A DNA stretch of 64,000 bases, taken from an uncultured Gammaproteobacteria bacterium. Its GTDB lineage: Bacteria; Cyanobacteriota; Vampirovibrionia; LMEP-6097; CAYGPN01. Positions within the stretch are counted from its first letter, which is position 1. Each line of letters starts with the position of its first letter. Position numbers and translations under genes: made by a program. The notes under the pieces were generated by a model. The model did no database searches. It saw only the letters and a program-made list of their open reading frames with translations, and had not been told where the DNA came from. The DNA lies in contig CAYGPN010000007.1 in the NCBI GenBank assembly GCA_964352085.1, forward strand, positions 27,725 through 91,724. The letters run 5' to 3'. Positions 14,446-39,578 of the stretch are shown here, one piece after another.

Positions 14446-14465
14446 AAATGATTTAAAAGTTAAAG

Positions 14466-14510
14466 ATTTCCGGTATTCCGGGTCTGACCCCTTTATGACC
14501 CCTTTTTTAT
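14466..14510 (+). terminator. putative intrinsic terminator after hisB
   Basis: CCGGtattCCGG / GGGTCTGACCCC hairpins followed by a T-rich tract. Confidence 0.3.
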
Positions 14511-14559
14511 TTTTAGTTTATAAAGAAGCTAAATTGTGAATTCTGTATATCAATTCTTT

Positions 14560-14595
14560 ATTTTTTCCTTTGCTTTGCTATAATATACTTCAACC
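14560..14595 (+). promoter_or_regulatory. putative sigma70-type promoter for the MNIO peptide operon
   Basis: tgcTATAATat (an extended -10) lies about 55 nt upstream of the precursor ATG. AAGGA RBS at -12. Confidence 0.3.
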
Positions 14596-14646
14596 ACGAA
14601 GGTAATTGCTCCAGGGGGAAGCAAAAGTAAAAGGAACTCAAAACAG

Positions 14647-14922
14647 ATGAAGAAAACAAAAATCTTAGGTGCTGCATTAGCTGCTGGTTTAACTGCAGGT
14701 GCTGCAAACGCAATCAACGTACCAGGAGTAGATACTAGTGCAAACACTCTATTTGCAATGGAAGAAGTAGCTTCTCCATCATTGCTTTTAGCTGGTCACG
14801 GTCAATGTGGCGCTGGCAAATGCGGTGGTGATAAGTCTTGCAAAGGTGATCACGACTGTAAAGGTGATCATGACTGCAAAGGCGATCATGATTGTAAAGG
14901 TGATAAGTCTTGCAAAGGTTAA
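14647..14922 (+). CDS. RiPP-type precursor peptide: Sec signal peptide plus a Cys/His/Asp-rich repetitive core (candidate copper-binding peptide precursor, BufA/HvfA-like)
   Basis: 91 aa. MKKTKILGAALAAGLTAGAANA (AxA cleavage site), then QCGAGKCGGDKSCKGDHDCKGDHDCKGDHDCKGDKSCKG, which contains seven Cys. It sits immediately upstream of the DUF692/DUF2063 pair and has a good RBS. Confidence 0.65.
   Translation: MKKTKILGAALAAGLTAGAANAINVPGVDTSANTLFAMEEVASPSLLLAGHGQCGAGKCGGDKSCKGDHDCKGDHDCKGDHDCKGDKSCKG
14821..14919 (+). repeat. tandem 18-bp coding repeat (about 5.5 units) encoding (C-G/K-G-D-H/K-D/S)n
   Basis: tgcaaaggtgatcacgac / tgtaaaggtgatcatgac / tgcaaaggcgatcatgat / tgtaaaggtgataagtct / tgcaaaggt. 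There is synonymous third-position variation between units. Confidence 0.85.
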
Positions 14923-14942
14923 TTGAGCTATACTAATAGTCA

Positions 14943-15857
14943 ATGACTTTTAAGAAAACTAAAATTAATAAATTTGGTTTAGGACTAGGGTTGAGGAGTG
15001 AATTGCTCTCCTCAACCCTTTCTTTTTGTCAAGAAAATCCTGAAAATGATCTTATTCAGTGGTTAGAGTTTATCCCTGAAAACTACGCTACTAAAGGTGG
15101 CAAGCATAGAAAAAGTTTTAGGCAAGCAGTGGATGCTGGCTTTCAGTTAATCCCACATTCAGTTTCTATAAGCATAGGAACCGCACCTAAAGAAAAGGGT
15201 GAGATAGTTTTTAATAAATATCTTTTGGATTCTTTGAAAGATATTTTCACTGAAGTAAAACCACCTTGGTTTTCTGATCATTTATCTTTTTCCTACATTG
15301 ATGGTATTTATCTTGAAGACTTAATACCTCTCCCAAGAACTCAAGAAGCGATTGATGTGGTTGCAGACAATGTTAAGTATCTGCAAGATGAATTTCAACT
15401 TCCTTTTTTGGTTGAAAACCCTAGTTACTACTCAAACATTATTCTAAGTGAGATGAAAGAGTATGAATTTTTAAACTCAATAGTGAATAAAGCAGATTGT
15501 GGTTTGCTTTTAGATGTAAACAATATTTATGTCAATTCTGTGAATCATGAATATGATGCTTTTAACTTTCTAGATAATATGGATCTTGATAGAGTGGTTC
15601 AAGTGCATGTGGCTGGGCATGATGCTGATTATAAAACTCCAAGTGGTGAGTTTTTAAAAGTTTTAGATACTCACGGACAAAAAACTTTGCCTGTTGTAAT
15701 GGAGCTTCTAGACAGGCTTTTAGAGAAGACAGAAGTTAACGGTATTCTTTTAGAAAGAGACGGAAATTATCCTGAAGATTTTAAAGAGATAACTGATGAG
15801 TTGAAAGAAATTCGCGCTGTCATGAATAAGCACGAAAAAGTTTTGGAGGTGGTGTAA
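14943..15857 (+). CDS. DUF692 / MNIO (multinuclear non-heme iron oxidative) enzyme, MbnB/BufB/HvfB-like
   Basis: 304 aa. It begins FGLGLGLR and has the TIM-barrel xylose-isomerase-like pattern with conserved His/Asp/Glu positions (PHSVSISIG, SDHLSF, ENPS, LLLDVNN, HVAGH). Confidence 0.8.
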   Translation: MTFKKTKINKFGLGLGLRSELLSSTLSFCQENPENDLIQWLEFIPENYATKGGKHRKSFRQAVDAGFQLIPHSVSISIGTAPKEKGEIVFNKYLLDSLKDIFTEVKPPWFSDHLSFSYIDGIYLEDLIPLPRTQEAIDVVADNVKYLQDEFQLPFLVENPSYYSNIILSEMKEYEFLNSIVNKADCGLLLDVNNIYVNSVNHEYDAFNFLDNMDLDRVVQVHVAGHDADYKTPSGEFLKVLDTHGQKTLPVVMELLDRLLEKTEVNGILLERDGNYPEDFKEITDELKEIRAVMNKHEKVLEVV

Positions 15858-16582
15858 TGGCAGTCAAGACTCCAAGCTTAAGAGAGCTGCAACAAGAGAT
15901 AAAAACTTTTATCTTAGAAAATAAAGAAGGCTCTGTAACTACTTTGCCCAAGCATGAATATGGCAGGCTTAGTATTTACCGTGACCTGATTTATAATATG
16001 ACCACAAATTTCTTTGGGGATGTTTTTCCGCTTTCATATAAATTTTTAAAAAGCGAGTGGAGATCTTTAGTCAAAGAATACTACTCTAAATACACTCCAG
16101 ATGATCCGATTTTGGTTTACATGGCATATAACTTCCCTCTATTTATTCAAGAAAAAGGAGTCGGTCCTGCTTACTTGGCTGAGCTTGCTCTTTATGAGTG
16201 GTGTGAGCTAGAAGTTTCTATTTGCAAGCCTGAAGAGAAGGAGCAAGGCATTAACCCAGCTCATTTGGTAATTGATTTTGAATATCCAGTTACAGACATT
16301 GCTATTGAAATAGAAAAAGATAATCTGTCATACGAGCCTGAGCAAAAGAAACAACAAATACTTTTTTACAGAGACCCTGAAACATTACTAGTAAAAACTT
16401 TTGTGCTTGCACCTACTACGGCGATTGCTATAGAGATGCTTGATAACGGAGCTAGCTTAGGTGAGATCGCTTTAAAGGTTAAGGAAGCTTTCTCATTGCC
16501 AAATGAGATGGATGAAAAATTAAGAACAGATCTATCTGCTTTAATAGCTTCCTTGCAAGATAAGGGTATACTGCTAAAATAG
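15857..16582 (+). CDS. DUF2063-family partner protein (MbnC/BufC/HvfC-like)
   Basis: 241 aa. The start overlaps the MNIO stop (TAATG). The N-terminal L..Q..F...I / RLSIYRDLIYN...FGDVFP motifs are typical of DUF2063 partners of DUF692 enzymes. Confidence 0.65.
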   Translation: MAVKTPSLRELQQEIKTFILENKEGSVTTLPKHEYGRLSIYRDLIYNMTTNFFGDVFPLSYKFLKSEWRSLVKEYYSKYTPDDPILVYMAYNFPLFIQEKGVGPAYLAELALYEWCELEVSICKPEEKEQGINPAHLVIDFEYPVTDIAIEIEKDNLSYEPEQKKQQILFYRDPETLLVKTFVLAPTTAIAIEMLDNGASLGEIALKVKEAFSLPNEMDEKLRTDLSALIASLQDKGILLK

Positions 16583-21795: not shown

Positions 21796-22593
21796 ATGTC
21801 AAAGCCAATCGTAATTAAAATAGGTACTAGCACCCTTACGGGACGCAATCCTGGCGAGCCTATTAACATTGAGCTTGTAAATAAGCTTGCTAAGACGATT
21901 TGTGATTTTGAAAAGCAATATAAAAGAAAGTGTATTTTAGTTAGCTCTGGAGCTATGGGCCTTGGTATCGCGAAGCTAGGTCTTCAAGATAAGCTAGATG
22001 TCTATAAAGGGAAGCTAGATATGAAAGCTTCTATCACTGCTATTGGACAAGTGCAGCTGATGAACGTTTATGAGGGCGCTTTTCTGCATCAATGTAAAAA
22101 ACATGTTGGGCAGATACTTATAACCGATCACGCACTTAAAGAGCCTGGTAGGCAAAAGCGCGTTAAAAAAACTATCGAAAATCTTTTTGAATTAGATGTG
22201 CTTCCTATTTTTAACGAGAACGACACTGTTTGTCCTGATGAAATAGAGTACGGTGATAATGATAAACTCTCTGCTCACGTAGCAGTGCTAGCTGGCGCAG
22301 AGCGTTTGATAATTCTTACTGACACAGATGGTCTTTTTGATGCTGATCCACACTCTAATCCTGAGGCTAAACTCATAGAAAATATTTCTGAAATAACTGA
22401 AGATATAAAATCTATTGCTGGTGATAGCAGCACGCATGGCGGGCTAGGCGGCATGAAAACTAAAGTCCATGCAGCGGAGATTTGCATGCAAAATGGCATC
22501 GTCATGAATATTATTAATAAAGAACGCGTTGAAGAAATCTCTAACTTCGTTAATGGAAAAGAAAAGCCTAGAGGGACTGAGTTTAAGGCTTAA
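21796..22593 (+). CDS. proB: glutamate 5-kinase (short form without a PUA domain)
   Basis: 265 aa, amino-acid kinase family. IVIKIGTS...LVSSGA.GLG..KLGL matches ProB. Confidence 0.75.
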   Translation: MSKPIVIKIGTSTLTGRNPGEPINIELVNKLAKTICDFEKQYKRKCILVSSGAMGLGIAKLGLQDKLDVYKGKLDMKASITAIGQVQLMNVYEGAFLHQCKKHVGQILITDHALKEPGRQKRVKKTIENLFELDVLPIFNENDTVCPDEIEYGDNDKLSAHVAVLAGAERLIILTDTDGLFDADPHSNPEAKLIENISEITEDIKSIAGDSSTHGGLGGMKTKVHAAEICMQNGIVMNIINKERVEEISNFVNGKEKPRGTEFKA

Positions 22594-23867
22594 TTACTTA
22601 GCTGCACTGAATACGGTCCTGTATGACTGTTTCCACTGTAAGTGGACCTTCCTACTTGTAAGTAAAAAATTAAATCTGGATCTTGGAAATCAAAAATAGG
22701 CAGGTTGATATTATTATCACTTAAAATACCTCCGTTGTGGAAGGTTAACTTCTGGATAAAGAAACCACCAAGACCTGGGATTTTATAATTAACGCTAACG
22801 TCGTTTATTATTTTACTAGTAAATTTCAAGTTGTAATTACCAGGAGCGAGTTTCCCTATTCGAAAGTAATCTGTGTCTCCGGGATAGTCAATATCTCCAG
22901 TTTTCATGCTTCCATTTAACTCAAGCTCACTAGCATTAGCTGTACCGTTTCCTCTACCATCAGGTTCTCGAACTACAAGTCTAAAAACCCCAGGAGTATT
23001 TAAGTTAACAGAAAGTTTAATAGTGTAAGTGCCAGGGGTTAAGAACCTGTTTATCTTTCGAAGAGTTCCAGAAGAAAAGCCATCATGGTCAATAACATTT
23101 TTTGAAGTTGCTATTTCATTTTCAGAAGAGTCAAAAAGTCTCATGGTTAAGTTTGCAAATCTTTTAATTATGATATTTCCACTTTCATCAAAGCTTGTAT
23201 CAGGATCATTTTGCAATAATTCGATTGCGTAGAAATCTTCTTTATCTTTCCCGATGGTAAATTTAAAGCAAGCTATATCATCTGGAGAGTCTAAAGTCTC
23301 TTCGACTACTTTACCTATAGGGATTGCTCTAATACCATCATCACCTGGACTCCCATCCCCGCCGGGGTTCTCGTCACCATCAGGATTCTCTTCAGGCTCA
23401 TCACCTTTTAAAGCTTCTTTACTAAAAAGAGTAATTTTAAAATCATAAGCTTGAGGTGGCACGAACTTTCTACCAAACTTTTTAGAAGATCTTAAATGAT
23501 AAACACCTCTTTTTTTAAGCTTCACTACTATGTTGTTATCCGCATCTCTTTTTTTAGCAAGCCTTTTTCTTCCTTTGTAAAATTTAATAAAAGCAGGGCT
23601 AGTACTTTCTAAATGAAGCTCCATATTATTCTCTGGAACTAAGAATTCAAAAAAATCTTTATCTCTTCTATGATCAAGAGTACTTTCGCCTGATGCTGTC
23701 AGATTACCGTCTTCGTTTTCACTAAGCTCAAGTTTAGTAGCGTTTTTTCTATTGTTGCCAACAAGATCGACAGTACTTGGATCTTCAACAGCTAAAGCTG
23801 GTAAAAGGCTGCTAGCCACTAAAATTGTGATTGCAATGATCTGATAAAGTCTATTTCTAAAGTTCAT
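22590..23867 (-). CDS. secreted protein with two PPC (pre-peptidase C-terminal)-like domains
   Basis: 425 aa. Signal peptide MNFRNRLYQIIAITILVASSLLPALA. DxDxFxF signatures (HRRDKDFFEF, GDTDYFRI) and a Gly/Asp/Pro-rich linker. Confidence 0.55.
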   Translation of the reverse strand: MNFRNRLYQIIAITILVASSLLPALAVEDPSTVDLVGNNRKNATKLELSENEDGNLTASGESTLDHRRDKDFFEFLVPENNMELHLESTSPAFIKFYKGRKRLAKKRDADNNIVVKLKKRGVYHLRSSKKFGRKFVPPQAYDFKITLFSKEALKGDEPEENPDGDENPGGDGSPGDDGIRAIPIGKVVEETLDSPDDIACFKFTIGKDKEDFYAIELLQNDPDTSFDESGNIIIKRFANLTMRLFDSSENEIATSKNVIDHDGFSSGTLRKINRFLTPGTYTIKLSVNLNTPGVFRLVVREPDGRGNGTANASELELNGSMKTGDIDYPGDTDYFRIGKLAPGNYNLKFTSKIINDVSVNYKIPGLGGFFIQKLTFHNGGILSDNNINLPIFDFQDPDLIFYLQVGRSTYSGNSHTGPYSVQLSN

Positions 23868-25532: not shown

Positions 25533-26303
25533 GTGATTACGAAGCGGATCATTCCATGTTTAGATGTCGACAAAGGTCGTGTGGTTAAAGGCACCCAATT
25601 TGTTGATATAAAAGATGCCGGCGATCCTGTTGAGCTAGCAAAACATTATTACGAGGCTGGAGCTGATGAGATTTGTTTTCTCGATATCACAGCGACTCAT
25701 GAAGGCAGAAGTGCGACTCATGAAATTATAAGAAAAACAGCAAAGCAAGTTTTTATTCCACTTACAGTTGGTGGTGGTGTTAATTCTGTTGATGATGCAA
25801 AAGCACTTTTAGATGCTGGCGCTGATAAAGTGGCTATGAATTCTGGTGCTGTTAAAAACCCGCAGCTTATAAAAGACTGCGCTGAAAGGTTTGGATCTCA
25901 GTGCGTGGTGCTTGCAGTTGATGTGAAAAGAAATGCTGCCAAAGAAGATGAATACAGTTGGCAAGTCTATGTTCGTGGCGGGCGCGAGAATACAGGGCTT
26001 GATGCTATTGAGTGGGTTAAAAAAGCTTACGAGCTTGGTGCGGGTGAAATCCTGCTTACAAGTATGGATAAAGATGGCTCAAAAGATGGTTATGATATAG
26101 AACTTACTAAAAAAATCTGCGAGTCAGTAAATATTCCTGTGATAGCTAGTGGCGGAGCTGGAAGCTCAGAGCATATTGTTGATGCTTTTAAAGCTGGCGC
26201 TGATGCAGCATTGCTCGCTTCTCTGCTGCATTATAAAGAGTTGACTATTGATGAAATTAAAAAAGTGATGATGGAAAATAAAATTGCTACGCGATTAGCT
26301 TAG
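25533..26303 (+). CDS. hisF: imidazole glycerol phosphate synthase cyclase subunit
   Basis: 256 aa with a GTG start. RIIPCLDV...TVGGG...DGYD matches HisF. Confidence 0.9.
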
Positions 26304-26949
26304 TGTCTTCCTTGTTTTCAGTATCTTTGTTTTCTTTTGCTCTTTGGCAAGCTTTTAACTCTTCGTAAAAAATTAAATTAAGATCTTGACGCATATCTTT
26401 AGGTAAAAGGTCTAGAGTTAGTTTCATTAAGCTAGCTATCTCAAAAGGACTTTCTTGTGCGCTCACTCTGCCTGGTGCTAGAAGTACTAATAAGTCTTGA
26501 AGAGATTTTTTGATTTTATCTTTTGTTCCCTCAAGCCCATCTTTATAGCGTAGTTCAGCCACATAAGCATCGTTCTTTGGATGCCTGTCTAAACCAAGGT
26601 CAACTTTTGCGGACCTCACTACTTTTTTAAGCCTCTCAAAAAAACTTAAAGTGTTTTTGGGATCTTTAGAAAAGATCTCTTTAAGAGCTGCAGCTGAATT
26701 TTTATAACTCTCAGAAAGGTACTTTGCGATATAAAATCTTGCGGGTTCATCAAGATCAAAGCTAAGTTGCATGATTATTTGATCATATCTTTCTTTAAAT
26801 TTTGGAGCTACTTTGAATACTTCTTTTTTAGTATCTGTAAGTTTGGGAGTTTTAGTTTCATCAGGAATTCTTCCAAGTAAAGCTCTTGCGGCCAAAGTTA
26901 CTCTTTGACTTATTCCAGCACCGTTATTAGTTTTTATAGATCCAGACAT
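26287..26949 (-). CDS. hypothetical protein (220 aa)
   Basis: Clean ORF downstream of pilC. No recognised domain. Confidence 0.4.
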
Positions 26950-27026: not shown

Positions 27027-28274
27027 CTACTGTATTTGCTTAATGATATTAAAGATAGGTAAGTACATCGCAACAACAACTGAACCTACTAGACCACCAA
27101 GAACCACAATTAGTATTGGCTCCATCATAGATGTCAGCGACTCTACAGCATTGTCTACTTCTGTATCATAGAAATCTGCTACTTTTTCTAGCATTGTTTC
27201 AAGCTCACCAGACTCTTCACCAATTGCAATCATTTGCGTAACCATAGGAGGGAAAATATCTGATTGTTCAAGCTTCGTGCTTAAAGAACCGCCTTCCTCC
27301 ACTTCTTTTCGAACTTCTAAAATTATGCCTTCTAAAATTGCGTTATTCGCAGAATCTTTTACCACATCAAGCGCTGTTATCATAGGCACTCCAGATTGGA
27401 TCAAAGTACCAAAGGTTCTAGCAAATCTAGCAACAGCTACTTTTTTAATAATGTCACCAAATAAAGGTAGCTTAAGTGAGAATCTATCAAGTGTTAGTCT
27501 ACCTTGCTCCGTTTTATACCAATTCTGAACACTTGTAATGGTAAACCATACAGTAGCGATTATCACCAGCATCCAAGGTGATCTAACAATCTCACTTAAA
27601 TTTATAAGAGCTTGAGTGAAGGCAGGAAGCTCGCCGCCAGTACTTTCAAAAATTGCAGAAAATTTAGGAAGAATAAAAGTTAGCATGAACCATAGAACTA
27701 CAACAGCTATTATCACCACCACGAATGGATAAGTCATTGCTGTTTTTACTTTTTGGGTTAGTTTGCTTCTAGATTCAAGAAAGCCTGCTAGTCGATTTAG
27801 AACCTTGTCCAGGACACCACCAGCCTCGCCGGCTTTTACCATCGCTACATAAAGCCTATCAAAGGTTTCAGGATAATTAGCTAGAGATTCAGAGAGAGCT
27901 TTACCTTGCTCGATATCATCTTTAACTTCTGAAAGCATAGTGCCTAATTTTTCGTTTTCTGTTTGATCGATAAGTACAGTGAGTGCACGAAGCATTGCTA
28001 TGCCAGCTTCGATCATCGCAGCAAACTGTCTAGAGAAAATCACCATGTCTCTAAGCGTCACTTTATCTCCACCAAAGAGCTTTTTGCTTCTCTTCTTTTT
28101 TCTACTTCCGGCTTGAGTTGCTGCAGTAGCATCAAGCTTTTGGTTTAAGTTAATTACAGTAAAGCCCTTTTTCTTTAAAGTGAAGCGTGCAATATGAATA
28201 TTTTTAGCCACTATTTCTCCATGCAAAGTTTTACCTTTGGTGTTTTTTGCAAGATAGCTGAATTTATTTGGCAT
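27027..28274 (-). CDS. pilC: type II secretion system F / type IV pilus assembly platform protein (PilC/GspF family)
   Basis: 415 aa. Two GspF-type repeats with the conserved polytopic membrane pattern (GIAMLRAL...GEESGELETML). Confidence 0.8.
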   Translation of the reverse strand: MPNKFSYLAKNTKGKTLHGEIVAKNIHIARFTLKKKGFTVINLNQKLDATAATQAGSRKKKRSKKLFGGDKVTLRDMVIFSRQFAAMIEAGIAMLRALTVLIDQTENEKLGTMLSEVKDDIEQGKALSESLANYPETFDRLYVAMVKAGEAGGVLDKVLNRLAGFLESRSKLTQKVKTAMTYPFVVVIIAVVVLWFMLTFILPKFSAIFESTGGELPAFTQALINLSEIVRSPWMLVIIATVWFTITSVQNWYKTEQGRLTLDRFSLKLPLFGDIIKKVAVARFARTFGTLIQSGVPMITALDVVKDSANNAILEGIILEVRKEVEEGGSLSTKLEQSDIFPPMVTQMIAIGEESGELETMLEKVADFYDTEVDNAVESLTSMMEPILIVVLGGLVGSVVVAMYLPIFNIIKQIQ

Positions 28275-28319
28275 TAACTAAACAAGCACACAAGAAGCGC
28301 TTATTCTAGTATTTCATAC

Positions 28320-29414
28320 CTATTGCTTTAGCTCAAGAACAAATCTGCCCTTAGCTAAACCGCTACTTGTAAATTCATTAAATTGACCTTTAAGTACTGC
28401 TTTTTTAGGGTTTCTAGATCTGATTAGAGTTACAGATCTTGGAGCGACATCAAAAGAAACACCGTTGCTTAGATCTCTTATGTTAAGAGTACCTATGCTA
28501 TTTAGGCTAGTAGAACCATCAATGCTATTAACTTTATTGGCTAGAGCACTCAATAGGCGTGGAAGTTTTCTAACTCTCATAGTGTAGTTTCCAATATTGT
28601 TGATTGAAATTCCACCACTAATAACACTACCAACACTATTCGTTACAATTTTGCTGATAGATGATCTAGCTTTTTCGAAACTGAAAATACTGCTGTTATC
28701 ATTAGCACCTTTTAGTTTTATCTTTTTAATGCTCTCTAAAGTCCCTGTACCTCTATATATAGATAATAATGATCCTGTTAGTTGAGGCTCAAAGCTTTTA
28801 GGAGCTAATAAATATAAAGCACCTGTAACTGAAGGTAAGAATATTGATTGAACAGAGTTGCTTAAAGTAAGGCTAGTTTTTATCTTGTTTAACAGACCTG
28901 TACTAGGTTTAGACCCTCTTGCTGTTAAAGCTTTTAGCTTATTAGTTTTTTTAGCTTTAGCTTTTTTCTTCTTCTGCTTTAGCTTCTTGGCTTTCTTCTT
29001 TGATACCTTAAAAGTTTTGTTGATGTCTTTAACAAAGCTAGCTTGAGGGCTAAGCTTAACCTTCGTTTTCTTCAATTCGGAAGTCTTCAAAGAACTAAGC
29101 TCAGCTTTTTTCTTTGTCTTCTTTGCTGTTTTCGGCTTTGTGTTTTCCTTAACTGTTTTTTTAGCTTGGCTAGCTTTTTTAAGCTGCTTAGCAGTTGGCT
29201 TAACTTTCACTGCTTTTTTGACCTTAGCTTTCTTCGCTTTTTTTGGATCAAATTTCTTAGCCCTTTTAGCTTTTAAAGCTTTCTTGTCAACTTTCTTAAG
29301 AGATTTAACAAGCTTAACTTTCGCTGTATCTTGCGCCTCATTTTTTGCAATAGCAGGTGTTGCAGTTAGGACCAAGATTGTAGAAGTAATTATATTTAGT
29401 AATTTTGTTTTCAT
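28320..29414 (-). CDS. secreted Lys/Ala-rich (histone H1-like, low-complexity) protein with a C-terminal globular domain
   Basis: 364 aa. Signal peptide MKTKLLNIITSTILVLTATPAIA. Residues 25-180 are about 40% Lys (KKAKKAKVKKAVKVKP...). The C-terminal 190 aa are non-repetitive. Confidence 0.5.
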   Translation of the reverse strand: MKTKLLNIITSTILVLTATPAIAKNEAQDTAKVKLVKSLKKVDKKALKAKRAKKFDPKKAKKAKVKKAVKVKPTAKQLKKASQAKKTVKENTKPKTAKKTKKKAELSSLKTSELKKTKVKLSPQASFVKDINKTFKVSKKKAKKLKQKKKKAKAKKTNKLKALTARGSKPSTGLLNKIKTSLTLSNSVQSIFLPSVTGALYLLAPKSFEPQLTGSLLSIYRGTGTLESIKKIKLKGANDNSSIFSFEKARSSISKIVTNSVGSVISGGISINNIGNYTMRVRKLPRLLSALANKVNSIDGSTSLNSIGTLNIRDLSNGVSFDVAPRSVTLIRSRNPKKAVLKGQFNEFTSSGLAKGRFVLELKQ

Positions 29415-29426
29415 TGTTATAACCTC

Positions 29427-32400
29427 TTATTTTTTACCTTTTAAGTTGACTAAGATGGAACCTTCTATTCGGTTTCCTGTCTCGACCTCAGTGAATATAA
29501 TCGGTACGGTTACCGTATTGTTCACTGAATCAAAGGCATCGCCTAAAGCATCTACGCTCTCTAAGAATTTTTTGCGGCTTTTAAGAACCACTTTAACCTT
29601 GCGAGCTTTTTTCTTCTTGCTATTAAGCTTGAATGGACTAGAAGGTTTGATTCTTACTAGATTTGCAAATAGTTCAGTAGTACTTGCTTGCACCGTTGTA
29701 ACTTTCTTTTCATTGTCTTCGCTATTGTTGAATTGAACTTTTAAGTTAACAGCTTTCTTTTTCTTTGCTTTAAGTTTTTTGACTTCTTTTAAAGTAGTTC
29801 CATCATCAGTAGTTCCGCCAATATCAAAAGTGGTTTTACCACCTGGATCTGAAGGTTCGCTAGGATCAGGTCCACCTGTAGTCGTAGCCTCTCTTACCGA
29901 GATGCTTTGGCTGCTAACGTTCTGCAAGCCACCAGCATCTGTAACAGTTAAGCTAACAGTTTTGCTTCCAGCACTTGTAAAAGTAAAGCTTGCTTGAGCT
30001 GTCGCCGCATCAAAAATTCCATCACCATCAAAGTCCCACTGAAATGATGTAACAGCTAGATCATCTGTGCTTGAGCTTCCATCAAAGCTAACAGCCGTAT
30101 TTTCAATTGGGCTAGTTGGACTAAAAGTAAAGCTGGCTACAGGAGCTTGGTTTGGAGGAGGAGCTGGTGGTGCTGGAGGAGCAGGAGCAGGAGGTGTTGG
30201 TGGAGGATTGCTCACTAGCACGCTCATTGAAATTACGCTTTGCTTTCCGCCATCATCAGTTACCCTTAAAAGAACATTATTAGTGCCAGCACTAGTATAA
30301 GTATTAGTTACTTGAGCGCCAGTAGCATCAAAAGTTCTATCACCATCAAAGTCCCATTCGTAAGTAGTTATGGTCCCATCATCTGTACTTAAGGATCCAT
30401 CAAAACTAACTTGTTGATTAGTTACTGGGCTTGCAGGATTAAAGCTAAATAAAGCTGTTGGAGCTAAGTTGTCAGGAGTAAACACTGTTTCAAATGTGTA
30501 ATTCTCTGGACTTAAAGAACTTGTGCTAAATGGACTTACTTGAATAAAGAAAGTAGTAGCACCAGCTTGGTTAGTTAACTCTAGTGATGCATTTAAACCT
30601 GAGCCACTATCATCATCTTGAGCTAATAAAGTTCCATTGGCGTCAAATACTGAAATAAGAGTATCTGCGCTTCCAGTAGTTCTAAATGTTATAGAACCAG
30701 CTTCAGAAAGTGTTGTTGTAAAGAAATCAAGATCAGCACCTGTCTCAAAAGTATTTAGAGCAGAGCTGTTATTAGCTACGCTAGTAGCGTTTGCTATGGA
30801 GTCGCCGTGATCGTCAGCAAGTAGTGATGTCATGAATGTGTAAGCTCCAAGATCAAATGGATTAAATCCAGTTACACTAGCCTCATAAGTAGTACCTGCT
30901 GTCACAGGAATAATTAAGCCGGCATTTTCTTCATTTGCACTATCATCATTTTCGCCAATTTGATTTAAATTTGAATCAAAAAGTCTAATGAATGTATCAG
31001 TGCTTCCTTCTGTGAACACAGTAAGAGCACCGTTTTGATTAGGCGTAAAAGTAAACCTATCATCATCAAGTCTTGTTTCAAGAATTCCGGCATCGGAAGT
31101 CTCGCCAGCTACTTGACTAGGAGTTACAGTTGTTGGGCTAACAGCTGGGTGATCATCATTTACTTGCTGAGTGTCAGGTGTAAATGTGGTTTTAACAGCA
31201 TATTGACCTACTAGACCATCAAAGTCTGAGAATAATTCAAGATAGTAAGTACCTGGGTTTAATGGTCTCTGGAATTTGAAATTAAATTTATCACCAAGGG
31301 GTTCTTCAAATGCAGAATCAAAAGCTGAGCCATTACTGTCTAATAAGAACATGTTGATTGCAGCATTTCCAAAAGACTCTGCTACAAAAATACCAGGCTC
31401 TGTGATAACGAATCTTAAAACATCGATATCAAACTCCTCCATTTCCTCTTTATAAGTTTCTCCCAAAGTAAGTAATGTAGTGGTTGAGATGTCTGCAGCT
31501 GAATCTGGATTAGGGGCAATACCATTGCTATCAAATTGAAGATCTAAAGTATAAACACCTTGATCGTCAGCTGAGAAACCACTAACACTTACAAAATAAA
31601 TACCTGATGGAAGATTAAGTGCAAGGTTAGCGTTTAAGTCTGTGCCAAGCTCGTCATCGTCATTAGTTCCTAGGCTGAGACCATTCGCATCAAAAATTTC
31701 TATGAAAGTATCAGTTGAACCAGTAGTTAATGCTGTCAGTGCACCAGCTTGAGCTAGCGTAACTGAGAAGAAATCAAAATCTTGATTGTTATTTATATTT
31801 CCATTAAATTGACTTCCCGTGCTTGCAATAGTTGCTTCAGCATTAGAGTTGCCGTGATCATCCGCTATAAAGGATGATGATAAAGAATAAGGTCCAGTAA
31901 CGAAATCACCAAAACCACCAACATCTATATAGTATGTGCCAGCAGGCAGTGATAAGCCACTAATATTGAAATTCAAAGATGGACCATCATCGTCATTATT
32001 AATAATAATGTTGCCGTTACTGTCTCTAAGTCTTCCAAGAGTATCAGTTCCACCTGAAGTCTCTAATTCTAAGTAACCTCTACTAGGCAAGATGATTTGG
32101 AAAACATCTCTATCACCAGAACTTTCTAGAAAACCATTTACAAATAAATCAATGCCATTAGTGTGATCTAAGATTGTTGCTGATGGGCTAGTGAAAACAC
32201 TACCATGGTCATCAGTTAAGCCATTCGTGAAAGCAGGCTGTATATTGTAAAAGCCAGTGCTAGTTAATGAATTACCAAGAACGGTTAGTATGTAGGTCCC
32301 GGCACTTACTGCTGTAGTTCGATTGTTCGCACTGGAGCCTACATTAGTGTCTAGGATGTTGTTGTCATTAGGGTCATCTAAAATCAATCTTAAGCCTGCT

Positions 32401-33758
32401 GAATTTGTGCTCGTTGATAAGAAGAGAGTACCTGTTTCAGTAAAAGTTAAGCTAAATACATCCCTATCACCACTTGTATCAATGCTAAAACCAGCATTAG
32501 TGTCCAAATTCAAAGCTAATGGTGTAGCTTTAGAGTTTGAAACATCGTCAAAAGAAAGAGTGTCAGTAATAGTTATTCCAGAAGTTGCAGAACCAGCTTG
32601 AACATTTAGTACGCCACCTTGACCAGCATCCACTAAATCAATAGTTGAAACTAAAGGGTTACCAGGACCATTATAGAATCCAGTTTTAATAAACTGTGTT
32701 TGTGGTCTGACAGGACCTAGTCTGGACCCACCTGTAAACCCTGCAGGGATAGTATCAACTCTAAGTGCGTAGTCGCCAGTTGGAAGGCAAGGAATATTAA
32801 ATGCACCATCACCTGTAGCAAACTTGTCTGATGCTGATGAAGCATTAGTGTTAAAAGGATCATTGATTTTAAAAGCAGTAATGTTTACGCCAAGTAGCGC
32901 GTGACCATTGCTTGTCTTAATTGCCCCACTGATATCTCCGCACGAAGAAGAGATTGTAGGCTGGTTTGGATAAGCTTCAGAGATTGATGAAATATCTGCT
33001 TGAGTCAAGGTAAAGCTATTGCTAATTGCAATTGGGAACATTATTGGAGCTAAGCTTGCAAGGTTAGCTGGAGGATTTGCTATTGCATGAATAGTATTTT
33101 CAAATGGATCTTTATTTCCTTGAATATGATCGAGACCAATCGCGTGACCTGTCTCATGAAGGAAAGTTGCCTTAAATAAATCTACTGTCCCTTGGAAGTC
33201 AACTTGTCCATTATTAGCAGTTATATATAAGAAACCATTCATTACCGCTTGCGACTCCACAATTCCACTAGAAGGGCTAGTAAAGGTTGGTCCTGCAAAT
33301 CCAAGAATATTATTTTTTAAACCAGTCCCAAAAAGTGCATCAGTGATTGATCCGTCATCATCAAAAATAACTGGTGAGTAACCAAGAGGGTTTGATGGGT
33401 TTAAAAAAGTGTTGAAGTTAGTTATGTTTACATCAACTCCAATTGAGGGTGTTGCATCTTTTGTAAAAGAGAAATTTGATGTTCCTACTTGATTCCACTG
33501 AGAAAGAATGCTGTCTGATAATGATTGAGGAGAGTTTGCCCCTCCTGCTTCAAGTAGCTCGCCGGCATTGCCAGCGTCAAGTCTATAGTTTAAAGTTCCT
33601 GAACTATAAGTTTTAAAACATTCTGGACCTGTTGGAACACCGCTGCAGCCGCTAACTAAAAGTCCAGCAGCATTTGCTTGCGGGCTTGCAATGAAACTTT
33701 GTGCTAGAAATGCAAGCGTTAAAGTTGTTCTGAGAATTAGTTGATTAAAATTTTTCAT
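29427..33758 (-). CDS. giant secreted multidomain metzincin-type zinc metalloprotease (M10-like catalytic domain + about 9 PPC domains + 2 PKD domains + Pro-rich linker + Lys-rich C-terminal region)
   Basis: 1443 aa. Signal peptide MKNFNQLILRTTLTLAFLAQSFIASPQANA. HETGHAIGLDH is the HExxHxxGxxH metzincin motif, and a Met-turn (APIMFP) lies downstream. The protein carries repeated about 100-aa modules with DxDxFxF (GDRDVF, DQDFDFF, DDDRFTF, ADLDFF), and PKD signatures WDFDGDRTFD / WDFDGDGIFD. A PPPTPPAPAPPAPPAPPP linker is present. Confidence 0.7.
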   Translation of the reverse strand: MKNFNQLILRTTLTLAFLAQSFIASPQANAAGLLVSGCSGVPTGPECFKTYSSGTLNYRLDAGNAGELLEAGGANSPQSLSDSILSQWNQVGTSNFSFTKDATPSIGVDVNITNFNTFLNPSNPLGYSPVIFDDDGSITDALFGTGLKNNILGFAGPTFTSPSSGIVESQAVMNGFLYITANNGQVDFQGTVDLFKATFLHETGHAIGLDHIQGNKDPFENTIHAIANPPANLASLAPIMFPIAISNSFTLTQADISSISEAYPNQPTISSSCGDISGAIKTSNGHALLGVNITAFKINDPFNTNASSASDKFATGDGAFNIPCLPTGDYALRVDTIPAGFTGGSRLGPVRPQTQFIKTGFYNGPGNPLVSTIDLVDAGQGGVLNVQAGSATSGITITDTLSFDDVSNSKATPLALNLDTNAGFSIDTSGDRDVFSLTFTETGTLFLSTSTNSAGLRLILDDPNDNNILDTNVGSSANNRTTAVSAGTYILTVLGNSLTSTGFYNIQPAFTNGLTDDHGSVFTSPSATILDHTNGIDLFVNGFLESSGDRDVFQIILPSRGYLELETSGGTDTLGRLRDSNGNIIINNDDDGPSLNFNISGLSLPAGTYYIDVGGFGDFVTGPYSLSSSFIADDHGNSNAEATIASTGSQFNGNINNNQDFDFFSVTLAQAGALTALTTGSTDTFIEIFDANGLSLGTNDDDELGTDLNANLALNLPSGIYFVSVSGFSADDQGVYTLDLQFDSNGIAPNPDSAADISTTTLLTLGETYKEEMEEFDIDVLRFVITEPGIFVAESFGNAAINMFLLDSNGSAFDSAFEEPLGDKFNFKFQRPLNPGTYYLELFSDFDGLVGQYAVKTTFTPDTQQVNDDHPAVSPTTVTPSQVAGETSDAGILETRLDDDRFTFTPNQNGALTVFTEGSTDTFIRLFDSNLNQIGENDDSANEENAGLIIPVTAGTTYEASVTGFNPFDLGAYTFMTSLLADDHGDSIANATSVANNSSALNTFETGADLDFFTTTLSEAGSITFRTTGSADTLISVFDANGTLLAQDDDSGSGLNASLELTNQAGATTFFIQVSPFSTSSLSPENYTFETVFTPDNLAPTALFSFNPASPVTNQQVSFDGSLSTDDGTITTYEWDFDGDRTFDATGAQVTNTYTSAGTNNVLLRVTDDGGKQSVISMSVLVSNPPPTPPAPAPPAPPAPPPNQAPVASFTFSPTSPIENTAVSFDGSSSTDDLAVTSFQWDFDGDGIFDAATAQASFTFTSAGSKTVSLTVTDAGGLQNVSSQSISVREATTTGGPDPSEPSDPGGKTTFDIGGTTDDGTTLKEVKKLKAKKKKAVNLKVQFNNSEDNEKKVTTVQASTTELFANLVRIKPSSPFKLNSKKKKARKVKVVLKSRKKFLESVDALGDAFDSVNNTVTVPIIFTEVETGNRIEGSILVNLKGKK

Positions 33759-34378
33759 TATTGATTCCCCTCACTTATAAACTCTAAGCAAATCTTCTTA
33801 AGATCTTCGTAGCTCGTTATCGAATTCTCTTTAGCGCTAACGGAGTTGATAGAACTAAGTGATGCTTTTAAACCTGTTTTGTTTAATTCGGACTTTTTAA
33901 ACCCGGTTCTTGTTTGTAAAATTGGTTGCTTGTTGTTGAAATTTACTATCCCTTGATTATCGTATGAAGAAGTGACACCAAGTATGCTTGGCTGAGCGAA
34001 GAAAAGTACATGCTCTTCGTTTTTTTTAATTTCTCTTAGAGGGCTTTTGATTGCAGACCAAACTTTTAAGGTGATTAATTTCTGTCCGTTCTTGATCCCT
34101 TTAATGCCGTCTTCAATTTTAAATTTATAAAGAGTAACAGGGATATTGTTATGAACGCTTTCAGATTTTGAAATTAGTGATCCTTTAAAAACGATCCCAG
34201 CAGATTGTGATAAATCCTTAAGGTCCATTGATCTATGTAAGGCACTAACGTTGTGATGGCTTTGTATCTTATTTGTGTTTTTGCCATTAGTTTTCTTCGC
34301 TTCAGCGCCTGTAATTAAGCAAAACTGTAAACTAAGTAATGTAGTTATAAATATTTTCATTAGAGTTCCTCTCATCAA
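33758..34378 (-). CDS. hypothetical secreted protein (206 aa), first gene of the protease operon
   Basis: Signal peptide (MKIFITTLLSLQFCLITGAEA). The stop overlaps the start of the metzincin gene. Confidence 0.45.
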   Translation of the reverse strand: MMRGTLMKIFITTLLSLQFCLITGAEAKKTNGKNTNKIQSHHNVSALHRSMDLKDLSQSAGIVFKGSLISKSESVHNNIPVTLYKFKIEDGIKGIKNGQKLITLKVWSAIKSPLREIKKNEEHVLFFAQPSILGVTSSYDNQGIVNFNNKQPILQTRTGFKKSELNKTGLKASLSSINSVSAKENSITSYEDLKKICLEFISEGNQ

Positions 34379-34582
34379 TTTCTCCCCCGGATAAATTTCT
34401 CAAGCAATTACTCAAAGAGTCTTAGCTTTAAATCTGAATTGATACTAGCAAAATGGGCATGCGGTTTTCAGGTATTTACATTAAATCCTTTTAATATTTT
34501 CTAAAGAGTTGATTTGGCGGGAACTTTTTCTCTGAGAGTGTTTTACACAATTAGGGAAAACCCCCAGTGAGTTAGACTGTTT

Positions 34583-36133
34583 TTGGTGTTGATTTTATTC
34601 ACTATAATTTGCTTCCTTTTGGTCTATTTCTTTGGGGCTCCTGCTGGCTTGTCCTTTTTTATTGGTCATCTTGGTGCCGCACTTCTTTCTCTACTATATA
34701 TAAAGAAGCTTTCTAGTTATTTTTTCTTTTGGGTCTTAGTCTTGGTATCTTTCTTCTTTTCTTCAGAGCCCAGGTTTAGCCTTGAGTTTCTCTTACTAAC
34801 TAGTTCCTTCTCTATTTTTGCTTTTTCTGATTTTTGGAGAAACACAAAAGAGTCTCATAGAAAAAATGTCCTTTTATCTATATTTATTTTGCTGGCTTAC
34901 TTTAACTTAGAGAAGATTGGCTTTTCAGAAAGAGGCTCTTTACTCCTTTGGCTTCCAGCTTTTTTAGTTCTTTATTACCCTAAGCTTGATAAATCAAACT
35001 ATTTAACTTATGCAATTTCAGCTCTAGTTCTTTTCTTTTCAAATAAACGCACAACTTTTTTAGCTTTCTTCACTACTTTAAGATCTAAGGTTTTTTATTT
35101 AATAGGTTTGCTTGGTCTTGCTCTGTCATTTGTATTTAAGCAAAAATTAAAAGCATTTTGGCTCAAGTCAATGTTGCCTAGATTGTTTATTTGGAAGTCT
35201 AGTTTTTTTGCTTTCTTCAATAAAATTTTATTTGGGCATGGCTTGGGGACTTTTGCTTTAGACTTTCCTATTTATCGCGCGCATGCTTCTGTGCTTGGCG
35301 GACGAGTAGATGAGCAAGTTGTTCATGGACATAGTAACTTTGCGCATTTTGGTTTTGAATTAGGTTTGCTCGGACTTTTTATACTGGCAGTTTTCTTTTA
35401 TTTGATTTATTTAAATGCACCACGAGCTTTGCTTCCTGTCTTTGTGATTTCTATTTTTGATAGTTCTTTGTTTACAGTTAATCAATTTCTATTGGCTTCT
35501 CTTATTTTTGCCCCATTTATAAAAGACTTGGGGGTTTTTGAAAAACTTTTTAGAACTTTTTCAAGTAAGTTAAAGTCATTAATGATGCTTCTAGGATTTG
35601 TTTTAGTTGCTCTAGTTATGGCGCCAAGCTTGATAGGACATCATTTTTATATTAAAAAACAATACTCTAAAGCTATTCAATGGGATAAAGATAACGGTCT
35701 TTATTACTTCATGCGCGGGAATAAGTTTTTAAATAAAGATCCTAAAAAAAGTGAAGTGGATTTTAAAAAAGCTACAGAGCTTTGTCCTTCTGTTTCCTAC
35801 TTCTATGGATTTTTGGCAGCTTCTCAATTAGCAAATGGGAAAAGGACTGAAGCTGAACTAAGTATTGATAAAGCAATTCAATATGATGGTAATGATGGTT
35901 ATTGGTATTTAATAAAAGCCTTTGTGAATTACGAAGATAAAGATAAATTTAAAGAATTAAAAAAGAAAGCTTTGAAGAGAAATCCAGAAATAAAAGTAAT
36001 TTTGAAGCATCCTGAATTAAGTTCAGCTCAGCTTATTGGAGGGCGAAAAAGAGGAGATATAAGAGTTTCTTCTTTTTATAGAAGGGGCGAAAAGGTTTTC
36101 TATCCTATAGCTTTTCCTGTTTACAGTAAATAG
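34583..36133 (+). CDS. O-antigen ligase (Wzy_C) family polytopic membrane protein with a C-terminal TPR-like domain (WaaL/PglL/PilO-like)
   Basis: 516 aa with more than 10 TM helices. HGHSNFAHFGFELGLLGL matches the Wzy_C H..N....E.G..G motif. A soluble TPR-like tail follows. Confidence 0.55.
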   Translation: MVLILFTIICFLLVYFFGAPAGLSFFIGHLGAALLSLLYIKKLSSYFFFWVLVLVSFFFSSEPRFSLEFLLLTSSFSIFAFSDFWRNTKESHRKNVLLSIFILLAYFNLEKIGFSERGSLLLWLPAFLVLYYPKLDKSNYLTYAISALVLFFSNKRTTFLAFFTTLRSKVFYLIGLLGLALSFVFKQKLKAFWLKSMLPRLFIWKSSFFAFFNKILFGHGLGTFALDFPIYRAHASVLGGRVDEQVVHGHSNFAHFGFELGLLGLFILAVFFYLIYLNAPRALLPVFVISIFDSSLFTVNQFLLASLIFAPFIKDLGVFEKLFRTFSSKLKSLMMLLGFVLVALVMAPSLIGHHFYIKKQYSKAIQWDKDNGLYYFMRGNKFLNKDPKKSEVDFKKATELCPSVSYFYGFLAASQLANGKRTEAELSIDKAIQYDGNDGYWYLIKAFVNYEDKDKFKELKKKALKRNPEIKVILKHPELSSAQLIGGRKRGDIRVSSFYRRGEKVFYPIAFPVYSK

Positions 36134-36202
36134 TCCTGGATTTAGCTAAATTTCACTGTTATATTAGAGTATGAGCTCTGGGAATATTGACTTTAGGCAT
36201 AT

Positions 36203-38129: not shown

Positions 38130-39578
38130 GTGCCGGCCAATGTTTTAAAAGAAATCAAAGAGAAAAATCTGATCGAGAGATCAGCTGAGAAACTTGAATT
38201 TCCAGAATCTTCTACTGCAATTAAAAAGAAAGTTAAAAAGCTTTCAAAAGAGCTTTTTACTAAAGGATTTTCTGATTTACTTAGTGAAGATGATTTTTGG
38301 ATTGAAAATGGCTATCTAACAGCAAGCAGTTTTTCACTTAAAGGTTCTTGGAAAGGAGAAAAGCGAAATTGGGGGCATAGTATGCACTCTATGGCATCTA
38401 GATCAGGCTCTTTCCCTCCAGCTCTAACTAATTATTTTATAGAAAACTTCTCTAAGAAAAATCAAACTGTTTTGGATCCTTTCTCGGGAAAAGGCACCAC
38501 TCTTTTTCAAGCACTTTTAAGTGAAAGAAACGCTGTGTCTATCGACATCACGCCAGAAGCATATATTATGTCTGCTGCTAAAGCATCAGGTATAGATCAT
38601 GAAACAGCAGTTGAGTATTTAAGATCTATTAAACTGAAAAAAGATATTGAACTTATTAAAGGTGTGCCTGAAGAAGTAAAGATTTTTTATCATGATAAAA
38701 CTCTTGCTCAGATAGTATCTCTTCAAGAAGAGCTTATGAAAGATTATTCTTTTAAAGTTGCTTACCTTTCAGAGAAAGCACCATGTAAAGAGTTCTCTAA
38801 TAAGAAAAATATAATACCTAAATTAAAAGGTACTTTTGGGATTGAAAGAGCAGATTTGAAAAATAAAGATCTTAGAGCTAAGTGCTCTATCTATTGGATG
38901 GGAGTGATGATGGGAATCCTTCATGGTTCATCTGATCTAAGTTTGAGCGTGCCATGTTCTCATAGCTTTAGCATGTCACCTGGTTATGTAAAAAATTACA
39001 CTAAGAAACATGGCTTAATAAAACCTGACCGTGATGTGAAAGCGTGTTTGATTAAACGTTCAGAAAAACTGCAGTTTGATGGCGCGCCTAAGCGTGGTGG
39101 AAAAGTGATCTTGGGTTCTGCAATGGATATGCCACACTCACTTACTAATCAAATAGATTTGATAATAACAAGCCCGCCTTATTACACAGCTCAAACATAT
39201 GCTTGGGATAACTGGCTTCGTGAGTGGTTCTTAGGTTTTAATTTTAAAGAAGTGCGCACTAAAACTCTTCATACAAATGTAGAAGATAAATATCGTGCTG
39301 GAATGCATGACTATCTAAGAGATTCTTATCGTGTAATGAAACCGGGCACCTGGTCTTTTGTAGTTGTTGGTGATGTGATGAAAAAGATCAATGGTGGTAA
39401 GGATAAAAAACATCTAATTACTTCAAATGTGATTGCTGAAGAAGCTATGAAAGTTGGCTTTAGTGTTGAGCTTGTTATTAATGATGATATTCCGCCGGAG
39501 AATTGCTATAACCGCGCTTTCTTGAAAGAAGGTCAGGGATTGAAGCTTGATCGTATTGTTTGTCTTTATAAAAATTAA
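38130..39578 (+). CDS. orphan DNA methyltransferase (N6-adenine/N4-cytosine class) with apparently permuted motif order
   Basis: 482 aa. Motif I VLDPFSGKGTT sits at about aa 105 and motif IV IDLIITSPPYY at about aa 345. No restriction endonuclease gene is adjacent. Confidence 0.65.
   Translation: MPANVLKEIKEKNLIERSAEKLEFPESSTAIKKKVKKLSKELFTKGFSDLLSEDDFWIENGYLTASSFSLKGSWKGEKRNWGHSMHSMASRSGSFPPALTNYFIENFSKKNQTVLDPFSGKGTTLFQALLSERNAVSIDITPEAYIMSAAKASGIDHETAVEYLRSIKLKKDIELIKGVPEEVKIFYHDKTLAQIVSLQEELMKDYSFKVAYLSEKAPCKEFSNKKNIIPKLKGTFGIERADLKNKDLRAKCSIYWMGVMMGILHGSSDLSLSVPCSHSFSMSPGYVKNYTKKHGLIKPDRDVKACLIKRSEKLQFDGAPKRGGKVILGSAMDMPHSLTNQIDLIITSPPYYTAQTYAWDNWLREWFLGFNFKEVRTKTLHTNVEDKYRAGMHDYLRDSYRVMKPGTWSFVVVGDVMKKINGGKDKKHLITSNVIAEEAMKVGFSVELVINDDIPPENCYNRAFLKEGQGLKLDRIVCLYKN

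Follow-up and report, generated by a model that had tools for sequence, protein, structure and literature searches.

A prodomain-less matrixin-like metalloprotease is paired with a small exported protein of predicted NTR/TIMP-type fold, a candidate inhibitor

What does a small exported protein do when its gene overlaps the start of the gene for a large secreted metalloprotease, and do the genes that follow belong to the same system? These questions are raised by a locus in a stretch of 64,000 nucleotides of contig CAYGPN010000007.1 (assembly GCA_964352085.1, positions 27,725 to 91,724), referred to here as the window. An initial annotation, made from the letters of the sequence, described four co-directional minus-strand genes of this locus as a secretion/protease island built around the platform protein PilC. 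The open reading frame (ORF) listing of the window bore out the four genes and their orientation. They are given below in their order of reading, together with the junction between the first two (read from the sequence).

33758-34378, minus strand: partner gene, encoding an exported protein (206 aa in the ORF listing; 205/206 aa)
33756..33760, minus strand: TAATG, overlap of the partner stop and the protease start
29427-33758, minus strand: protease gene, encoding a secreted matrixin-like metalloprotease of 1443 aa
28320-29414, minus strand: Lys-rich gene, encoding an exported protein of 364 aa
27027-28274, minus strand: pilC/gspF, encoding a platform protein of 415 aa

The functional core of the locus is a two-gene cassette, 29427-34378, made up of the partner and the protease, and not an island centered on pilC. 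The stop codon of the partner gene and the start codon of the protease gene share 1 nt, and a Shine-Dalgarno sequence, GAGGGG, lies 8 nt upstream. Because of this overlap and ribosome-binding sequence, translational coupling of the two genes is likely. The protease stop is separated from the start of the Lys-rich gene by a spacer of 12 nt with GAGG inside it, and the Lys-rich gene lies 45 bp from pilC. Junctions that overlap or measure 12 bp, as first described, were thus found at two of the three positions but not between the Lys-rich gene and pilC. Promoter and terminator scans returned matches that were as frequent in shuffled sequence and hence uninformative. The products of 28320-34378 differ strongly in charge: the protease body has a calculated isoelectric point (pI) of 4.1, in contrast to 9.8 for the partner, 10.1 for the C-terminal domain of the protease, and 10.8 for the Lys-rich protein.

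The partner begins with a signal peptide that ends AEA/KK, leaving a mature protein of ~180 aa. The end of the signal peptide reads ...LSLQFCLITGAEA/KK, an AxA site for signal peptidase I, and its LQFC is not a canonical lipobox. Relatives of the partner often have a Cys toward the end of their hydrophobic stretch, likewise with no canonical lipobox. On the contigs of seven protease relatives, a small ORF without a Pfam domain was found in every case directly upstream of the protease gene and on the same strand. The window partner is homologous to the upstream ORFs of L081 (BLASTP E 2e-25) and L084 (E 1e-8), and a profile of four upstream ORF proteins retrieved 73 proteins of ~200-220 aa, none of which has a Pfam domain. 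When all fetched loci were scanned with the hidden Markov model (HMM) of the family, the partner was found immediately upstream of the protease in 10 independent loci (L081, L084, L085, L088, L090, L091, L101, L102, L103, and L104) in addition to the window, with guanine-plus-cytosine (GC) contents ranging from 0.33 to 0.67. The frames overlap or abut as in the window in L081, L084, L085, L101, L103, and L104. Searches started from the partner side (L101-L103) or from a distant protease (L104) again led to adjacent gene pairs, usually with an overlap of 1-4 nt. No partner without a downstream protease was found by the HMM scan of the fetched loci, all 11 occurrences being paired. A metagenome scan yielded just 8 short loci, three of which were later shown to contain the gene pair.

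The pairing persists while the C-terminal part of the protease changes: the paired enzymes carry none, one, or six pre-peptidase C-terminal (PPC) modules, or a Big_3_5 domain, and the C-terminal domain may be present or absent. Since the pairing survives such wholesale changes of architecture, it is tied to the catalytic core of the protease. The most conserved motif of the partner across phyla is S-x-LG[LV][TS]SP[VI]G-x-x-QG-x-F; the signature loop S-x-LG[LV]TS..QG lies at aa 130-142 of the window protein. Four protease loci carry another small upstream ORF in place of the partner, and in three of the four this ORF belongs to a group that we call family B (154-195 aa; L082:7463-8038, L095:4404-4991, and L096:4540-5004), which overlaps or abuts the protease gene from upstream. 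Homology between the partner family and family B was examined by hhalign and rejected (probability, 0.4%). Family B may be an analogous partner by which the original was replaced.

We then asked to which family the protease belongs. The signal peptide, the HExxHxxGxxH zinc motif, and the metzincin Met-turn reported in the initial annotation were all confirmed in the sequence. The features of the N-terminal part are as follows.

33669..33758, minus strand: signal peptide, aa 1-30, cleavage ANA/AG (sequence and family alignments)
32955..33668, minus strand: catalytic domain, aa 31-268 (family alignment, profile, and PF00413)
33126-33158, minus strand: zinc motif HETGHAIGLDH, aa 201-211
33033-33047, minus strand: Met-turn PIMFP, aa 238-242, followed by the C-terminal helix DISSISEAY

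A metallopeptidase HMM match was looked for around HETGHAIGLDH and was found as a sub-threshold match to Pfam Peptidase_M10 (PF00413; 17.8-20.0 bits, below the gathering score of 24). Because the single-sequence Pfam evidence is thin, the assignment to M10 rests on the family. With the first 400 aa of the protease as a query, 63 relatives were obtained, the best being merely 41% identical. The alignment with 26 relatives shows no variation at H201, E202, H205, G208, D210, H211, or P242; at least 90% of the sequences have M240, and D254 and Y263 are near-invariant. PF00413 was the top family in 25 of the 26 aligned relatives (E ≤ 0.01; best E 5e-10), and the distant relative in L103 attains its gathering score. 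Furthermore, the family profile matched the catalytic domains of matrix metalloproteinases (MMP-2, -13, -1, -8, and -3) and karilysin in the Protein Data Bank (PDB) with E values from 1e-6 to 8e-4, in alignments spanning the zinc helix, the Met-turn, and the final helix (the MMP segment LMxP ... DDixxiqxLY). The family consensus consists of HExGHxxGLDHSQ, an M-[FY]-P Met-turn, and the helix DDxxAxxxLYP, which we take to be an MMP-type and not a serralysin-type signature; the window protease has Ile, not Ser, after the third His of the zinc motif.

In the protease family, the conserved mature N-terminus (AG..L) directly follows the signal peptidase site, and the cysteine-switch motif (PRCGxPD) is missing from the window protease. 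With nothing in between, the window protease has no prodomain. These results indicate that the 1443-aa protein is, as judged from its sequence and family, a Sec-exported, multi-domain, prodomain-less matrixin-like (M10) metzincin and a divergent member of its family. The metzincin (M10-like) identity first proposed is thus upheld through the family, the window protein alone being sub-threshold in PF00413.

To what fold does the partner belong? A model of the partner was built with AlphaFold2 (AF2) from an alignment of 41 sequences. The mean predicted local distance difference test (pLDDT) score was 76.5, and the means of ten-residue blocks were 78-97 over aa 51-150. The modeled chain consists of a helix, a long beta-hairpin, three or four more strands, and a C-terminal helix. 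When compared with the PDB by Foldseek, the top 19 matches were all modules of the NTR/TIMP type, including agrin NtA, TIMP-1, TIMP-2, and the NTR module of PCOLCE, and TIMPs from structures of MMP complexes made up 14 of the 19. Approximately 45 of the 50 best matches were NTR modules, among them complement C345C and meteorin. Over the matches, E values extend from 3e-4 to about 3e-2 and target TM goes up to 0.61; those to TIMP-1, TIMP-2, NtA, PCOLCE, C345C, and meteorin have a probability of 1.00 and E from 3e-4 to 1e-2. In the model, the conserved S-x-LG..QG motif is part of the loop that connects strands 4 and 5. The partner is therefore predicted to have an OB-fold of the NTR/TIMP type, as a fold-level resemblance and not as membership in the TIMP family.

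These observations bear on whether the pairing has any meaning. The ORF might be an unrelated periplasmic hitch-hiker, with the NTR-like prediction being generic OB-fold noise; the Foldseek E values are modest, at about 1e-3 to 1e-4, the OB-fold is a common one, and the top 50 matches include a few OB proteins other than NTR modules. We consider this very improbable, given that all 11 pairs are adjacent, with overlapping or abutting frames, across GC contents from 0.33 to 0.67 and differing protease C-terminal architectures, and that NTR modules predominate among the fold matches to the extent described above.

We next consider what the partner would do. The host is taken to be diderm (61578-63218 of the window encodes an Lnt homologue), so that Sec would deliver a prodomain-less matrixin to its periplasm, where the enzyme would be active once folded. 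Restraint by the partner is therefore proposed. The basic partner, made in step with the protease, would bind the acidic catalytic domain (pI 4.2) and would block or guard the active site until the protease has left the cell or reached its surface. A wedge loop is a more probable contact than an N-terminal amine as in TIMPs, with the S-x-LGLTSPVG-x-x-QG loop as the best candidate. On the basis of the fold model and of analogy with known systems, we infer that the partner is a co-translated wedge-type inhibitor or guard of the protease catalytic domain, with a probability of roughly 55%. The remark in the initial annotation that the small upstream protein could be an inhibitor or chaperone-type partner is strongly reinforced by the pairing in 10 loci and by the predicted NTR/TIMP-like fold.

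Several points weigh against inhibition. The partner family is not universal, as one protease subclade carries the unrelated family B ORF upstream. The fold match is moderate (E 3e-4, target TM of 0.5-0.6, and ~10% identity) and derives from one predicted model built on 41 sequences. No sequence link to TIMPs, NTR modules, or potempins was found, either in Pfam at E ≤ 1 with four members of the family or in the PDB with the family profile. In addition, the partner has neither the N-terminal Cys1 nor the disulfide framework of TIMPs: its mature N-terminus is KKTNG, and the window protein has two Cys residues, one at ORF residue 20, inside the signal peptide, and one at residue 197. Most relatives of the partner have a different Cys pair, GxC ... 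CSELG. Finally, NTR modules are not always inhibitors: laminin is the ligand of agrin NtA, and PCOLCE acts as an enhancer of a metalloprotease.

The partner could accordingly be non-inhibitory, either as a helper in folding or secretion (a propeptide in trans or a chaperone) or as an enhancer or adaptor that docks the protease to a substrate or surface. Many secreted proteases need a propeptide to fold and the window protease has none, while both PCOLCE, an enhancer of an astacin protease, and agrin NtA, a matrix-binding module, are among the top fold matches; the strict co-occurrence of the two genes would suit any obligate partner. On the other side, the characterized small proteins encoded upstream of bacterial MMP-like and other secreted peptidases, the potempins, are inhibitors (PMC9890683). 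In that system, PotA has been shown to make no contribution to the secretion or maturation of prokarilysin (PMC9890683), and TIMPs from MMP complexes make up most of the top fold matches of the partner. We therefore regard a non-inhibitory role as unlikely, although it is a more serious alternative than a chance pairing.

The preferred reading, that the partner restrains the protease, has a close counterpart in the KLIKK/potempin system of Tannerella forsythia, in which inhibitor ORFs overlap the peptidase start or lie ≤5 bp upstream and are co-transcribed with it (PMC9890683). Potempins are small beta-barrel inhibitors, of which PotA, with a five-stranded OB-fold, inhibits the MMP-like karilysin, and in all OB-fold potempins the functional loops lie between strands 4 and 5 (PMC9890683). 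TIMPs have the OB scaffold in common with potempins but act through the N-terminal amine (PMC9890683). As in the potempin/karilysin pair, the window partner is a small exported protein whose ORF overlaps the start of an MMP-like secreted peptidase, and its predicted OB-fold places a conserved candidate loop between strands 4 and 5. The window peptidase also resembles the KLIKK peptidases in that its C-terminal domain is Ig-like and is shared with other secreted enzymes. By contrast, the partner is about 180 aa in length, compared with 98-132 aa for potempins, has flanking helices typical of NTR modules, and shows neither detected sequence similarity to potempins nor a canonical lipobox. The window protease differs from karilysin in having no propeptide and in that its C-terminal domain is not that of the type IX secretion system (T9SS). 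The hosts differ as well, the window host being Melainabacteria-like and T. forsythia a member of the Bacteroidota, and inhibition, characterized for potempins, is inferred here.

The MMP-type catalytic signature and the match of the partner model to N-TIMP-1/2 and NTR modules recall the TIMP-MMP pair of animals (MEROPS I35/M10A). However, the partner has no Cys1, TIMP disulfides, C-terminal TIMP domain, or Pfam match to TIMP (PF00965) or NTR (PF01759), and the protease has neither the cysteine-switch prodomain nor the hemopexin domain of MMPs. The pair also resembles serralysins and their inhibitors Inh/AprI (M10B/I38), in which the genes for a metzincin and for a small exported protein are likewise neighbors, with the same logic of protecting the cell's own envelope. 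Serralysins use type I secretion and have RTX repeats and a Ser-x-Met-Ser-Tyr Met-turn, and their inhibitor is an eight-stranded barrel, whereas the window protease carries a Sec signal and its Met-turn is MMP-like. Co-encoded protease/inhibitor pairs are thus a known kind of system, of which the window locus would be a variant, as suggested by the model and these comparisons. A broader claim, that bacteria of several phyla own NTR/TIMP-fold inhibitors of matrixin-type metalloproteases as obligate, translationally coupled upstream partners, is put forward tentatively and with less confidence than the proposal for this locus.

How is the remainder of the large protease built? Downstream of the catalytic domain, the following features were assigned.

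32568..32954, minus strand: CarboxypepD_reg-like beta-sandwich, aa 269-397, with a conserved FTGGS (PF13620)
30465..32567, minus strand: six tandem PPC-like modules, aa 398-1098, ~115 aa each (PF04151 and an HMM of the protein's own modules)
29904..30464, minus strand: two PKD domains, aa 1099-1186 and 1203-1285 (PKD_4; PF18911/PF00801)
30162-30212, minus strand: PAPAPP linker separating the two PKD domains
29430..29840, minus strand: basic C-terminal Ig-like domain, aa 1307-1443 (alignment, HMM, and AF2 model)

The window protein scores 20.5-21.3 bits against PF13620, below the cutoff, and 18 of 26 relatives match this family. The whole protease scores 60.2 bits against PF04151 (cutoff, 25.9). 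When the PPC modules were scanned singly, five of the six matched PF04151 (E 1e-6 to 3e-4), module 4 did not, and two exceeded the cutoff; an HMM built from the protease's own modules tiled exactly six. The earlier count of about nine PPC modules was therefore too high. The PPC array is acidic (14% D+E). PKD_4 matched the whole protein in two stretches (E 1e-26) and each domain alone with E ~1e-14; thus, the two PKD-type modules stand as described, together with the PAPAPP linker and the Lys-rich C-terminal region (19% Lys).

The core architecture of the relatives is ~510 aa in length, and the closest relatives are about 510-670 aa. It looks as if ~900 aa, comprising the six PPC modules, the two PKD domains, and linkers, had been inserted between the CarboxypepD_reg-like and the C-terminal domains. 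The PPC and PKD array would bind an insoluble or polymeric substrate. Other secreted bacterial proteases, such as metalloproteases and collagenases of Vibrio and Pseudoalteromonas, likewise have PPC and PKD domains appended to an exported protease, presumably for substrate binding. In these proteases, however, one or two cleavable C-terminal domains are found instead of an internal array of six PPC modules, and the array of the window protease precedes an additional C-terminal domain that is unrelated to it.

The 425-aa protein at 22590-23867, an exported protein with no Pfam match, had been cited as a PPC-domain protein that suggests an expanded family. It has no Pfam PPC match, whereas the HMM of the protease modules detected it with E 1e-7 in three module-like stretches. 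These three divergent PPC-like modules give modest support to the remark on an expanded family.

The last ~137 aa of the protease (pI 10.1) align to the C-termini of its closest relatives, and a leave-one-out HMM still finds the window copy of this domain (E 3e-11). No match to it was found in the Pfam scan or, by sequence, in the PDB. The AF2 model of the domain (pLDDT 78) is an Ig-like sandwich, its nearest structures being PapD-like/ASH domains and the C-terminal Fn3-like domain of plant subtilases; as modeled, this sandwich is a generic fold. A reading of this region as a T9SS C-terminal sorting domain was rejected, because the weak Por_Secre_tail match lies inside PPC module 3 (aa 680-726) and not at the C-terminus (Pfam PF18962, 26.3 bits against a cutoff of 27; TIGR04183, 23.4 against a cutoff of 23).

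In an exhaustive HMMER search over 1.84 billion representatives, merely 72 clusters matched the C-terminal domain at E ≤ 1e-3. All single-stretch matches have the end of the domain at the protein C-terminus or no more than ~20 residues before it; ~10 of the 72 clusters are multi-stretch partial matches in large proteins and lie outside this count. The proteins bearing the domain are M10-like proteases, proteins of unknown function with 255-310 aa and Pro/Thr linkers, and a GH18 enzyme of 1413 aa. The last of these, P0208, is a glycoside hydrolase that ends in this rare domain, and five proteins of 262-308 aa (P0159, P0163, P0164, P0168, and P0172) combine uncharacterized N-terminal domains and Pro/Thr-rich linkers with the same C-terminal domain. 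The domain appears to be restricted to Melainabacteria-like organisms and to be previously undescribed. Because it is rare, lineage-restricted, consistently C-terminal, and common to unrelated exported enzymes, its distribution suggests a sorting or surface-anchoring module, which would direct surface retention or outer-membrane sorting. That this proposed role derives from distribution alone is a further point against our overall account of the locus.

Does the Lys-rich gene that follows belong to the cassette? Its 364-aa product has a signal peptide and contains 40% Lys over aa 24-165. No Pfam or NCBIfam match and no homologue in any other fetched locus were found for it, and its C-terminal half has no relative in the PDB. 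A relationship to the Lys-rich C-terminus of the protease was considered and rejected, as BLASTP and the HMM of the C-terminal domain showed compositional resemblance only. We regard the Lys-rich protein, from the sequence comparisons, as a lineage-specific add-on that is tightly coupled to the protease gene. Its charge invites the idea that it might be an electrostatic partner of the acidic PPC array or a binder of polyanions.

The last of the four genes is pilC. PilC/GspF has two T2SSF domains (PF00482, E 7e-68), and all NCBIfam PilC and GspF equivalog models scored below their cutoffs, so that type IV pilus (T4P) and type II secretion (T2S) cannot be told apart for this protein. Among the scanned ORFs of ≥100 aa in the 64-kb window, no T2SSE ATPase, secretin, or A24 prepilin peptidase was found, in agreement with the earlier statement that PilC is encoded alone. 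When PilC was searched with one genome per species, the best matches were two metagenome-assembled genomes (MAGs) titled "uncultured Gammaproteobacteria", with 69% and 61% identity, followed by Melainabacteria, Caenarcanales, Obscuribacterales, and Sericytochromatia MAGs. Those relatives of the protease and of the partner that bear a name are likewise "Candidatus Melainabacteria". The window thus most probably derives from a MAG of a non-photosynthetic cyanobacterium (Vampirovibrionia/Melainabacteria-like). The two loci titled "uncultured Gammaproteobacteria", L001 (CAZFCF010000007.1) and L002 (CAYTKM010000008.1), keep the order of the AMP-binding gene and pilC, and L001 also that of hisF; their Gammaproteobacteria label is probably wrong.

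In both L001 and L002, pilC lies directly beside the AMP-binding gene and divergent from it, and in L001 hisF comes directly after pilC. In the window, ~7.9 kb (28275-36202) lies between pilC and the AMP-binding gene. This extra block holds four genes: the Lys-rich, protease, and partner genes and the following divergent gene.

34583..36133, plus strand: polytopic membrane protein of 516 aa with weak Wzy_C and TPR matches, in the block absent from the closest relatives

The gene of this Wzy_C-type (O-antigen ligase-like) protein is divergent from that of the partner; pilin O-glycosylases are among the Wzy_C proteins, a curious detail given the proximity of pilC. GC content is even across the window at about 0.33-0.40 and lies at 0.33-0.39 in the block beside pilC; base composition thus gives no indication of a foreign origin of the block. 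Between pilC and hisF, which are adjacent in L001, the window contains a 220-aa ORF with no family match (26287-26949), a second lineage-specific insertion.

The proposal that the four genes form one secretion/protease unit, in which PilC's T2S/T4P-type machine would export the protease as its dedicated substrate, can now be weighed. The genes are co-directional, and the 45 bp before pilC contain no terminator-like site, which makes co-transcription possible; a protease exported by a Sec signal still has an outer membrane to cross; and for cyanobacteria it has been proposed that T4P assembly and protein secretion share one complex (PMC8092324). However, L001 and L002 have no block between pilC and the AMP-binding gene, HMM scans of 80 pilC loci, covering flanks of as much as 10 kb per side, detected neither protease nor partner in any of them, and none of about 20 protease loci contains pilC. 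The platform gene stands alone in the relatives as well. We consider such a unit quite improbable, and the description of the locus as an island built around PilC is not supported by these comparisons. Because the adjacency is not conserved in relatives, it lends no support to a functional link, and pilC is, on this comparative reading, a neighbor through lineage-specific rearrangement. Export of the protease through a shared T4P/T2S machine in the cyanobacterial lineage is mechanistically possible, with gene adjacency providing no evidence for it.

Within the window, the locus is flanked by ordinary housekeeping genes, among them glnA, hisF, an acyl-AMP ligase gene, pyrF, pyrD, and carAB. Three other regions were recorded. 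An enzyme of the MbnB/TglH/ChrH family (PF05114, E 7e-79) is encoded at 14943-16582 and is followed directly by a DUF2063 protein; such a pair is typical of modification systems for ribosomally synthesized and post-translationally modified peptides, and the ORF-poor ~500 bp upstream (14446-14942) could encode a precursor peptide. A 737-aa protein at 6420-8633 has a Peptidase_C39-like domain (E 5e-8), with no ABC-transporter domains detected in it. A 482-aa N6/N4 DNA methyltransferase is encoded at 38130-39578, with no recognizable restriction enzyme partner nearby.

What would the cassette mean for these families? TIMPs are treated as a metazoan family (PMC4860685, PMC9409782), and a recent bacterial MMP phylogeny does not mention such inhibitors (PMC12587646). 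Potempin A, from one oral pathogen, is the sole characterized bacterial protein inhibitor of an MMP-like enzyme (PMC9890683). If the proposed inhibition is true, the pairing of an MMP with an OB/NTR-fold inhibitor would be no metazoan invention and would be either ancient or repeatedly convergent, which would inform the debate over the origin of MMPs and their regulators. The NTR-fold protein and the prodomain-less matrixin would then form a testable bacterial counterpart of the MMP/TIMP pair, widespread and easily recognized as a gene pair, and selective metalloprotease inhibitors would gain a new scaffold in the partner. Furthermore, the exported or surface proteins of an uncultured cyanobacterial lineage that is non-photosynthetic might be recognizable by the rare C-terminal domain.

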